Source of the DNA: a bacterium
GTDB taxonomy: Bacteria; UBA10199; 2-02-FULL-50-16; JAJFLM01
Direction: 5' to 3'
DNA: 64,000 bases
NCBI GenBank assembly: GCA_965216315.1
Contig: CBDCFN010000016.1
Span: forward strand, 640,001 to 704,000
Positions 23,601 through 26,600 of the stretch are shown piece after piece. The position numbers are program-made. Each line of letters opens with the position of its first letter. Position 1 is the stretch's first letter.

Positions 23601-26600
23601 TTATATTCTCCTTCGGGGGTGCCGACGGTTCGAACGATCGTCGCCGTCGGTTTTTCCTGGCTGAGGAAGGTCGCGTCGAGGCGGGTCGCATTACGCGCTG
23701 CGACGCTGTAGTCCAATGCGGCCTGCTCGCCTTCAATTGTTTTAAAAGAGCGTTCCAGCATCAGCTGTTCTTCGAGTGGCGGGACAATGGTTCCCTGGCT
23801 TTCCACTGGTGCGGCCTCCACGGCGCGAACGGTTTTGGTGGCAGAGGTGACGATTTCTTCTTTTGCGGCCTCGACCTTATCGGCGTCTTGCCCCTGGACT
23901 GTGCCATTGCTTATCGTTAATAAAAGGATCCCCAAGAGTGTCAGTAAGATTTTTGTTTTCATAATAAGCCGAGTCTTGCAATGCAGGTGCCATTCCCTGA
24001 AAAAAATAAAAAATAAAGTGTATTAAAATTAGGAGCTTGCAAGGAGAGGGCTGCAATGGTGGCCGCGGTGCGATTATCATAATGATAAAATTATCATATT
24101 GATAACGCGGTTGTTGCCACGGCGTGCATTTCGTAACGTCTTAGTTCAATTGGGTTTTTTTGCATTGGCTGTCAAAAGGATGACGTTTTTTCTTATCAAA
24201 GTGAGAATTTTTCCAAAAATTAAAGGATAAAATATTAACCTATGGTTAAATAGTTAAGTAATATCAACATTTTATAAAAGATGACTTGGCGCGAAAAATA
24301 GGCACGTCAATTGCTTCCCTAAAAGAGCATGATTACATCAACTTCAGCACGGATCGGGGGCGTGCTGACCTCAACCCTGACCCTCCTTCTGCTCACGATG
24401 ATTCCGGTCGCGCCGGCTCAGGGGCAAGAGCTGCAACGGGTGCGGGCCCTGAAGGCGGTGGTGACCGAAACGGCGGCGACCGATAGCAGCTACGGCGTGG
24501 CCAATGCCTGCCTCGAATCAGATTTCAAGTCCCCCGGCTTTCGGACGCATACACCGGATGTGAAGGCGGCCTTAGGGCTCGGTTTTTCGACGGACACTCT
24601 TAAGGCCCTGCTTGAACGCTCCGCGGCCTGTGACGAAAAGACCTGCACGACCGAGGATCGTCTCGCCTTGTACGAGGCCTTCATTGAGGCCCTGGCGCCG
24701 GCCTTGGATTCTAATCTGGGTCTGGATTATTCAGCGCAGCTGGACATTGAAATGCCGGCCGGTTTTTTTGCGGCTCACGCCTCGCGTGATGTTGAGAATC
24801 GTGCTTTCGTGACCGGAGATAATGCGCTCAATTACATTTACAAAAAGCTTAATGCCGCGATTAACAAAGAAGCCGGAGAGACTGCTGGTTGGGGGCCCTC
24901 CGGTGTCGTGGCCGCAGACCATAATGGCGTGATCGATTACAAAGAACTGCTTGAGCCGGTCGATCCGACGGGAAGTCGCATGATTGAATACAAGGGCAAA
25001 CGTTATTTCGTTGTCCTCGATAGCGTAGGTGCGGAACTCAGGGAAAATTCCGCATTTATCGACGGCCGACTTGAGAAGGGTGAGTTTCCCGGCGGCCGGG
25101 CCCATCTCTATGAAGTGACTCAAGATGAAGACGGGGCTTGGAGCTATACGTATCTTTTAGCTTACGATGTCGGTTACAAGCCTTATGGGATTGAGTTTGA
25201 TGCCACTACGGGAACGGTCTACGTGGCAGGGAGTGGGGGCTTCTTTGGCAGCCAGGTGGTCGGGGGCAGTATTGCGGAATTTAATATCGAAAGTGACGTT
25301 GCGACCCATTATTCCACGGTTGATCCCGAGTTCTATGCCAGTAAAGGTTGGGTTCATGGACTGACGAAGTCGATGGCCTCCTATGGGGACTATATTTATC
25401 TCACGCCGCTGACATTGCCTAATCTGACGGTCAAAACATCGCTCGATGCAGAGTCATGTGTAGGGGGAACGGCTGGTTTTGCTTTCAGGGGGTTCTGCAC
25501 AGGACCGATCGAATTTAAGTTGAGCCAGGATGAATCAGGCCAACATTTCATTACGAGTGGTGAAGGTGCCGATCAACACACGGCACCGATAGAAAGTTTG
25601 GAGAGCAGTCCGTACTTTCCGACTGCCACGACTGTTCTGGGGTACGAATCCGGCAGCATGCTCATGCATATCGCGCCGGATTTGTATCAGGCTATTTGGG
25701 TGATTTCACATACGGAAAATATGCAGACGGTTGTCAAAATGCCTTTCACGGCGGGGAGCGCGGAGAATAGCTACCGTATCCATGAAATGAAGGCGTATTT
25801 CAAGGGTCCGGTCAATGCTGTCGCGGAACTTCGCATGAAAGAACATGGCGGCATTGATTTCATTGCGCGCACTCTCAATGGCAATTTAATTACTATCTAC
25901 AATAAGCTCACTCATCAATTGAGTTACCAAATGCTGGAGCATGAGCTCGCGTGGATTGAAAGCGAAACGCCGTTTGTCTTCAACCTGAGTGATACGGTGA
26001 GCGTTCAATTTGGGATTGGTGGCGGTTGGTCGGGTGTCGAGTACGGAAAAGTCGGCGACAAAGAAGGGCTGTTTTTTCATAAGTTGCGCAGCATGGATGC
26101 GGCCTTTGCCGCAGCCGATTCGATTGGTCCGGATGGAGCCGTGACGGTAAGCGGAGAAATAGGCTTTGCCAGCAAGGAGTACCAAGAGCGCGTCAAGGCC
26201 GCGTTGAAAATCGACGAGGTCAATGCCTTTATCAAGGAGTTGGATCTTATCGAAAATCCAGGGGTCAGTGTGAGTACGGAAGAAATGAGTAGCGGGATGG
26301 GTGCGTTGATTACAACGCTTCTTGCGCTTCATGCCGGGCCTCAAGAAATGATTTATATGCACCAAGCCGGTGAGCCGAGTGACATGTTTGCCCGCTTTGG
26401 TCTGGACTTTATCGGTTTCCTTAATCACGTACGCCCACCGGCTCACCATTTTATCGAGATCGATGGTTGGAAGAGCCCGGTGACTGAATTGCAGCAGTTG
26501 GAATTTTTTGGGGCGAGGGAGAGTGAACTGCGGGAGTATGAGAGCGCGAATACCTTGGAAGCGACGGAAAAACAGGCGATCGAGCTCGAGGCGGCCGAAA

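Follow-up and report, generated by a model that had tools for sequence, protein, structure and literature searches.

Two genes for exported proteins diverge from one intergenic region of a 2.96-Mb genome from an uncultured bacterial phylum; between them sigma-54 promoters face both ways, and the palindrome TTATCA-N3-TGATAA stands in two exact copies 17 bp apart. Which protein reads this paired element, and which genes does it serve? The first-pass annotation had taken it for the upstream activating sequence of one enhancer-binding protein controlling the surface proteome. Within the stretch analysed here (64,000 nt, the window), we found seven matches with at most one mismatch against 0.08 expected, a count reached in none of 100 shuffles, and the paired palindrome is confirmed as a real signal (Table 1).

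Table 1. Enhancers, sigma-54 promoters and target genes in the window, numbered from its first letter.
Feature	Position	Strand	Remarks
Tandem enhancer, two exact 15-bp palindromes (24074-24088 and 24091-24105) 17 bp apart	24074..24105	.	Centred 90 and 107 bp upstream of the first G of the leftward promoter
Single site, one mismatch	24193..24207	.	101 bp upstream of the rightward promoter
Site resembling what we take to be the IHF consensus	24262..24274	+	39 bp upstream of the rightward promoter's GG
Predicted sigma-54 -24/-12 promoter of the 1370/1381-aa gene	24300..24315	+	14.0 bits; GG 24301-24302
Predicted sigma-54 -24/-12 promoter of the 733-aa gene	23977..23992	-	13.1 bits; GG 23991-23990
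Target, exported protein (start 24329 or 24362)	24329..28474	+	Short Gly-Gly-Cys tail, no membrane helix
Target, 733-aa signal-peptide protein	21761..23962	-	Cys motif, membrane helix, basic tail
Second tandem enhancer (16573/16591), 18 bp spacing	16573..16605	.	103/121 bp from promoter with GG 16477-16476 on -
Target, 705-aa signal-peptide protein	14333..16450	-	Cys motif, membrane helix, basic tail
Third tandem enhancer (29522/29539), 17 bp spacing	29522..29553	.	Overlaps the upstream gene's stop; 82/99 bp from promoter with GG at 29628 on +
Target, 1071-aa signal-peptide protein	29657..32872	+	Short Gly-Gly-Cys tail

The exported protein at 24329..28474 has no match in Pfam or NCBIfam. The window also holds two giant open reading frames, of 6227 aa at 33165-51848 (+) and 2139 aa at 52172-58591 (-), the first with laminin-G, TSP3 and F5/8 domains in its first half.

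Across the genome we counted 24 exact sites with the 3-base spacer; the earlier figure was 27, a small difference that leaves the observation standing. Reading a palindrome backwards makes a weak control, as the first-pass annotation itself acknowledged, and a scan of other spacers served instead: only the 3-base spacer was enriched, spacers of 0-2 and 4-12 bases giving 0-2 sites each with about 0.4 expected. A matrix built from 48 near-exact sites located 20 tandem elements, 16 at 17 bp and 4 at 18 bp, matching the spacing first described. Among 40 relatives searched, the five richest carried 18, 11, 11, 9 and 8 exact copies, close to but not identical with the 19, 14, 10, 8 and 7 counted before.

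We called 2487 genes with our own script and trained a -24/-12 matrix on 85 promoters lacking the palindrome. A predicted sigma-54 promoter lies 30-250 bp downstream of 19 of the 20 tandems, compared with 9% of random intergenic positions. The resulting regulon comprises 22 of 141 sigma-54 promoters; each of two tandems serves a divergent pair, and one further promoter is preceded by two single sites. The promoter link proposed earlier for 17 genes is therefore borne out and extended to these 22, but the distance, previously put mostly at 72-132 bp, is 68-110 bp from the nearest site to the promoter's first G, with clusters near 71, 82, 91 and 102. These distances are helically phased in this genome (Rayleigh p = 5e-4, n = 22; p = 0.002 without the main mode), and phasing was not significant (p = 0.11) for 40 targets picked from 135 matches in relatives. 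Matches to a presumed IHF consensus fall between site and promoter in 12 of 22 cases, compared with 29 of 119 other sigma-54 promoters (p = 0.009). Of the 22 tandem loci found in relatives, 15 were fetched, and in 14 the best promoter match lies 79-85 bp away (10 at 10 bits or more). The inverted repeat is intergenic and is conserved at orthologous promoters, those of the gene g0566 described below. From position, spacing and conservation, the paired palindrome is very probably the upstream activating sequence, or enhancer, of a sigma-54 activator.

A different reader had been suggested by the junction of the tandem, TGATAA-N2/3-TTATCA, to which a Fur-family metalloregulator might bind. The genome has two Fur-family genes, and the junction resembles a 7-1-7 box: with the letters that we presume for that box, three of the 18-bp elements match within one mismatch. 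One tandem, at C16:188345 of this genome (G000), has no sigma-54 promoter, nor have several single sites. However, a 7-1-7 box needs a junction spacer of 3 bases, and 16 of the 20 elements have one of 2; the inverse arrangement was never seen alone in intergenic DNA, whereas single TTATCA-N3-TGATAA sites were. Matches to the 7-1-7 box outside the tandems fall in coding sequence, including one flagged as intergenic that reads as part of an uncalled gene. The sites lie 70-110 bp upstream of the promoter and do not cover it, the targets scanned included no iron-uptake family, and the site tracks the activator candidate g0529 across genomes (below). The passages of PMC11353095 on the Fur box give it as a 7-1-7 inverted repeat, and a Fur protein at this junction is highly improbable; an enhancer for a sigma-54 activator remains the preferred reading.

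Three further loci depart from the common arrangement. The promoterless tandem (C16:188345-188376) is near-perfect, lies shortly before an ApbE-family gene and is possibly a repression site or a decayed promoter. At C16:2046830-2046905, about nine copies of the 7-bp half-site form a run ending in a one-mismatch palindrome, upstream of an exported-protein gene without a good sigma-54 promoter; this is perhaps a slipped or decayed enhancer. At C16:588340 an exported protein with a Cys tail has a sigma-54 promoter and, 80 bp upstream of that, a weaker single site; we counted this promoter in the control set, but it probably belongs to the regulon as its 23rd member. At 6 of the 22 targets here and 11 of the 40 in relatives, an ATG lies within 0-7 bases of the predicted transcription start, which suggests leaderless messages.

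The targets had been described as proteins nearly all with Sec or lipoprotein signals, and our counts agree. By a heuristic of our own, signal-peptide-like starts mark 20 of the 22 regulon targets compared with 35 of 116 other sigma-54 targets (p = 1e-7; three promoters without an open reading frame were left out), and 32 of the 40 picked targets across 22 relatives. A Gly-Gly-Cys C-terminal motif, found with a pattern that takes in some false matches, occurs in 8 of 22 regulon targets compared with 2 of 116. The MYXO-CTERM tail is defined in the relevant part of bioRxiv 10.1101/2023.06.07.544157 as a Cys motif, a membrane helix and an Arg cluster; four of our eight have such a three-part tail and four lack the membrane helix. 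Anchoring by MYXO-CTERM, as first claimed, reduces to a resemblance: one of 10 C-termini matched TIGR03901, at 14.7 bits with a cut-off of 20. Repeats of the FG-GAP, TSP3, Ig-like or calcium-binding kind occur in a few targets, and most belong to no known family. Genome-wide, the signal-peptide heuristic picks out 580 of the 2487 called genes and the C-terminal motif pattern 49 genes, 8 of the latter in the regulon. Since about 22 targets are a small part of these sets, the whole surface proteome is not controlled, and that half of the original proposal was overstated while the upstream activating sequence of sigma-54 promoters stood.

Many exported proteins, such as those ending at 28474 and 32872 in the window, close on a short Gly-Gly-Cys-Ser-Leu-x-Arg-Arg tail and lack the membrane helix; others have all three parts of the tail. 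None of the short Gly-Gly-Cys tails that we scanned matched NCBIfam.

The element had been reported as abundant in five relatives only. Our sample of the phylum consisted of one class and 93 genomes, with most pattern counts made on 73. The strict tandem occurs in 11 of the 73 and the site-plus-promoter pattern in 45 (control 0), so that a degenerate form of the enhancer is, as judged from these patterns, phylum-wide. The regulon has about 22 promoters here; in most relatives a strict pattern yields 1-4. The only conserved target found is g0566 (C16:116916-117299), present in 63 of 73 genomes and encoding a 127-aa protein without signal peptide, predicted to be cytoplasmic. We read 50 of its upstream regions (49 genomes and one paralogue): a sigma-54 promoter was present in all 50 and the site in 47, compared with 3% of shuffles. 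The site is often degenerate and mostly lies 80-84 bp from the promoter. The protein has no match in Pfam, NCBIfam or Atlas. Its predicted structure has four strands and two helices (pLDDT 78.5), for which Foldseek returned nothing at E<=0.001; in a wide search the highest Z was 5.5 (rmsd 2.3, 66 aligned), no better than noise.

A single enhancer-binding protein had been postulated without a name, and one can now be nominated. The genome encodes 17, of which five (g0527, g0528, g0529, g0799 and g1296) are common to site-rich genomes. Our candidate is g0529 (C16:71588-73006, outside the window), the third activator in a conserved cluster of a histidine kinase and three activators. It has a PF00158 AAA+ domain with a GAYTGA loop and Walker A and B motifs, and an HTH_8 (Fis-type) helix-turn-helix; in 28 orthologues the AAA+ motifs are kept and the helix GQATxYRK is invariant. 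Its N-terminal domain has no PF00072 receiver match, and the phospho-Asp and Lys positions, placed by what we take to be receiver anatomy, are not Asp or Lys in 10 aligned orthologues. Judged by its sequence, this domain is a receiver-like pseudo-receiver and not that of an NtrC-type phosphorylated regulator; because the phospho-Asp is missing, the signal is probably not phosphorylation.

The gene g0529 was found in 63 of the 73 genomes. An E<=1e-9 cut-off would miss divergent orthologues such as those of G089 and G090 and was too strict; we therefore relied on gene order and a second query to recognise deletions. Of the 10 genomes without it, seven show a clean deletion, the second activator being followed directly by the gene that usually comes after g0529. 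We set aside three as uninformative: G036 and G072, which keep g0566 with sites and whose contigs break at the junction, and G068, which also lacks the second activator. All seven deletion genomes lack g0566 (by profile search in three of them) and lack the site-plus-promoter pattern in both strict and loose form. The pattern is carried by 57 of the 63 genomes with g0529: 45 in strict form and 12 of the 15 re-tested with the loose form, three being left without a re-test. Trees of two other activators (15 and 14 rows) indicate at least two independent losses. Six of the seven deletions fall in one family, so there were maybe only two events; kin are not independent, and the co-loss therefore counts as some two events together with one prediction that held. 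That prediction concerned G090, a member of the six-deletion family with three pattern matches, which we had stated beforehand must keep g0529. It does, with a frameshift in the assembly; G089 keeps it too, and both have g0566 with a tandem site. In G066 and G026, g0529 is present and g0566 was not found. Membership of a shared pathway, instead of direct binding, could lie behind the co-loss.

The enhancer might instead be read by another conserved activator, g0799 or g1296 (both with an FHA domain), g0527 or g0528 (both with a receiver), alone or as a hetero-oligomer with g0529. All five are common to the site-rich genomes, the DNA-binding domain of g0799 is nearly invariant there, and the clustering of g0527-g0529 makes joint action possible. 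But all seven deletion genomes keep g0799 and g0528, the three that we inventoried also keep g0527 and g1296-like proteins, and still none has a site-plus-promoter pair. The recognition helices give a second comparison: that of g0529 is identical to the helix of Escherichia coli YgeV at 10 of 14 positions, whereas these other activators match at only 4-8 and the runner-up among all 17 reaches 8. Scored over both helices of the DNA-binding domain against YgeV, two other activators reach 68 and 66 and g0529 59. One of these proteins acting in place of, or together with, g0529 is a minor possibility, and g0529 is, from co-loss and recognition helix, the likely activator of the paired palindrome. 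Our first candidate had been g0799, dropped because its support, a profile of exact pattern presence and absence, was misleading: the 'negative' genomes carry a degenerate site.

The parallel with YgeV extends to DNA. The same word lies upstream of xdhA, ygeW, ygfK and uacT in the YgeV gene cluster (NC_000913.3), exact in one of the four. The alignment of the two proteins (42% over 323 aa) is confined to the AAA+ and helix-turn-helix parts and does not extend to their N-terminal domains; the targets of YgeV are purine-catabolic, with sites 20-29 bp apart or single rather than 17 bp apart. The parallel suggests a helix-to-site link between the shared recognition helix and the word T[AC]TCA-N3-TGA[GT]A, which would support the putative YgeV site in E. 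coli. The YgeV regulon is itself putative in the relevant passages of PMC10602906. Scanning named genomes with g0529 gave 80 generic activators, 38-53% identical to it; the six with at least 9 of 14 matching helix residues had no sigma-54 promoter in their flanks.

One could also suppose that a non-activator protein, for instance of LysR type, binds the palindrome as co-regulator while the true activator acts from elsewhere. The site contains what we presume to be the T-N11-A core of LysR-type sites, and the 17-bp spacing would put two dimers on nearly opposite faces of the helix, unusual for enhancer pairs. No extra factor is needed to account for the fixed 79-85 bp distance, the IHF-like site, the joint loss with an enhancer-binding protein or the likeness to YgeV, and such a co-regulator is quite improbable. 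We retain direct binding by the sigma-54 activator.

The closest known system is the PEP-CTERM box with PrsK, PrsR and PrsT (Haft et al. 2006, PMC1569441). As the relevant passages of that paper describe it, an enhancer, sometimes repeated, and a sigma-54 promoter precede scattered single-gene units for C-terminally sorted surface proteins, and PrsR was nominated by phylogenetic profile; repeated enhancer, scattered genes and nomination by profile are common to both systems. The PEP-CTERM box, however, is a 17-nt motif ending in TTTACA with a spacer of about 63 nt, and PrsR has a receiver domain and a cognate kinase where g0529 has a pseudo-receiver. No PEP-CTERM match occurred among the scanned targets, and a C-terminal Cys motif of any kind is present in only 8 of 22. 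By its word, regulator type and targets, the regulon described here falls outside the PEP-CTERM system although it works in a similar way. The Desulfovibrio vulgaris sigma-54 regulome is likewise a comparative reconstruction, for a deltaproteobacterium; its relevant passages (PMC4641369) put the largest share of promoters no more than 100 nt from the activator site, describe promoters without an assigned site as mostly those for the cell exterior, and do not give the palindrome word. Our literature search found no description of this regulon; supplements of regulon reconstructions may hold the word for other activators. The design of the switch is known, while the switch itself, its likely activator and its possible small partner protein appear undescribed.

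Sequence statistics show the site, its tandem spacing, the promoter link, the bias towards exported targets and the co-loss with g0529, and on these we build a scheme. By analogy with sigma-54 activation in general, one enhancer-binding protein, most likely g0529, would bind the paired palindrome as two dimers 17 bp apart; IHF would bend the DNA between enhancer and promoter, and the activator oligomer would open the promoter. The ancestral core target would be the 127-aa cytoplasmic g0566 protein, possibly a feedback partner of the activator, and each lineage would add its own exported, mostly orphan proteins. As a whole, one activator, most likely g0529, with a g0566 core and lineage-specific recruits is the likely explanation. 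Textbook systems such as NtrC, PspF/PspA and HrpRS/HrpV, as treated in the relevant passages of PMC7057263, share the upstream activating sequence some 100-150 bp from the promoter, looping by IHF, the AAA+ activator and, in some cases, control by a partner protein. They differ from this one in its 17-bp tandem geometry, its roughly 22 scattered promoters and its candidate partner without family or clear fold match.

Co-folding of g0566 with g0529 scored 0.48 (runs 0.48, 0.02 and 0.75; best control 0.00), with contact agreement of at least 82% and partner pLDDT of at least 72. Of 157 solved complexes, 116 pass the mark used, only 18 of the 157 with a score of 0.60 or below; of 215 mismatches two pass it, both at 0.60 or below, so that the model lends weak support to binding. 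Given the co-loss and this weak co-fold, g0566 as a feedback partner of g0529 is a reasonable but tentative guess. Sigma-54 activators regulated in trans are known, FleQ with FleN being one example, and g0566 could represent a new type of partner for them. More speculatively, and with somewhat doubtful prospects, the phylum would share a two-protein switch with a feedback loop: instead of being phosphorylated, a pseudo-receiver activator would answer to a 127-aa partner of no known family that it transcribes itself, and the switch would drive a rapidly changing set of exported orphan proteins recruited anew in each lineage, for example in a life-stage or contact programme.

For a phylum without cultured members, the analysis provides a regulator, a site and a set of targets that can be tested directly. 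It brings some twenty orphan exported proteins together in one programme and presents a regulon pattern of one fixed core gene with lineage-specific recruits.

About 17 other sigma-54 promoters are preceded by a related single-copy word, GT[CT][CT]CA-N3-TG[AG][AG]AC, most often at a distance of 59-62 bp (C16:137573, 138338, 1054804, 1214000, 1703893, 1794157, 2064015, 2138678 and others). In its strict form the word turned up in 2 of 30 genomes, each a member of this genome's own family, and for that reason it failed as a positive control in the deletion genomes. By eye, several of the genes downstream of it resemble toxin-antitoxin or transposase genes. Eight of the 17 enhancer-binding proteins (L021, L023, L026-L028, L031, L033 and L034) are fusions of 1290-1700 aa that join Ser/Thr kinase, TPR, GAF and activator domains.
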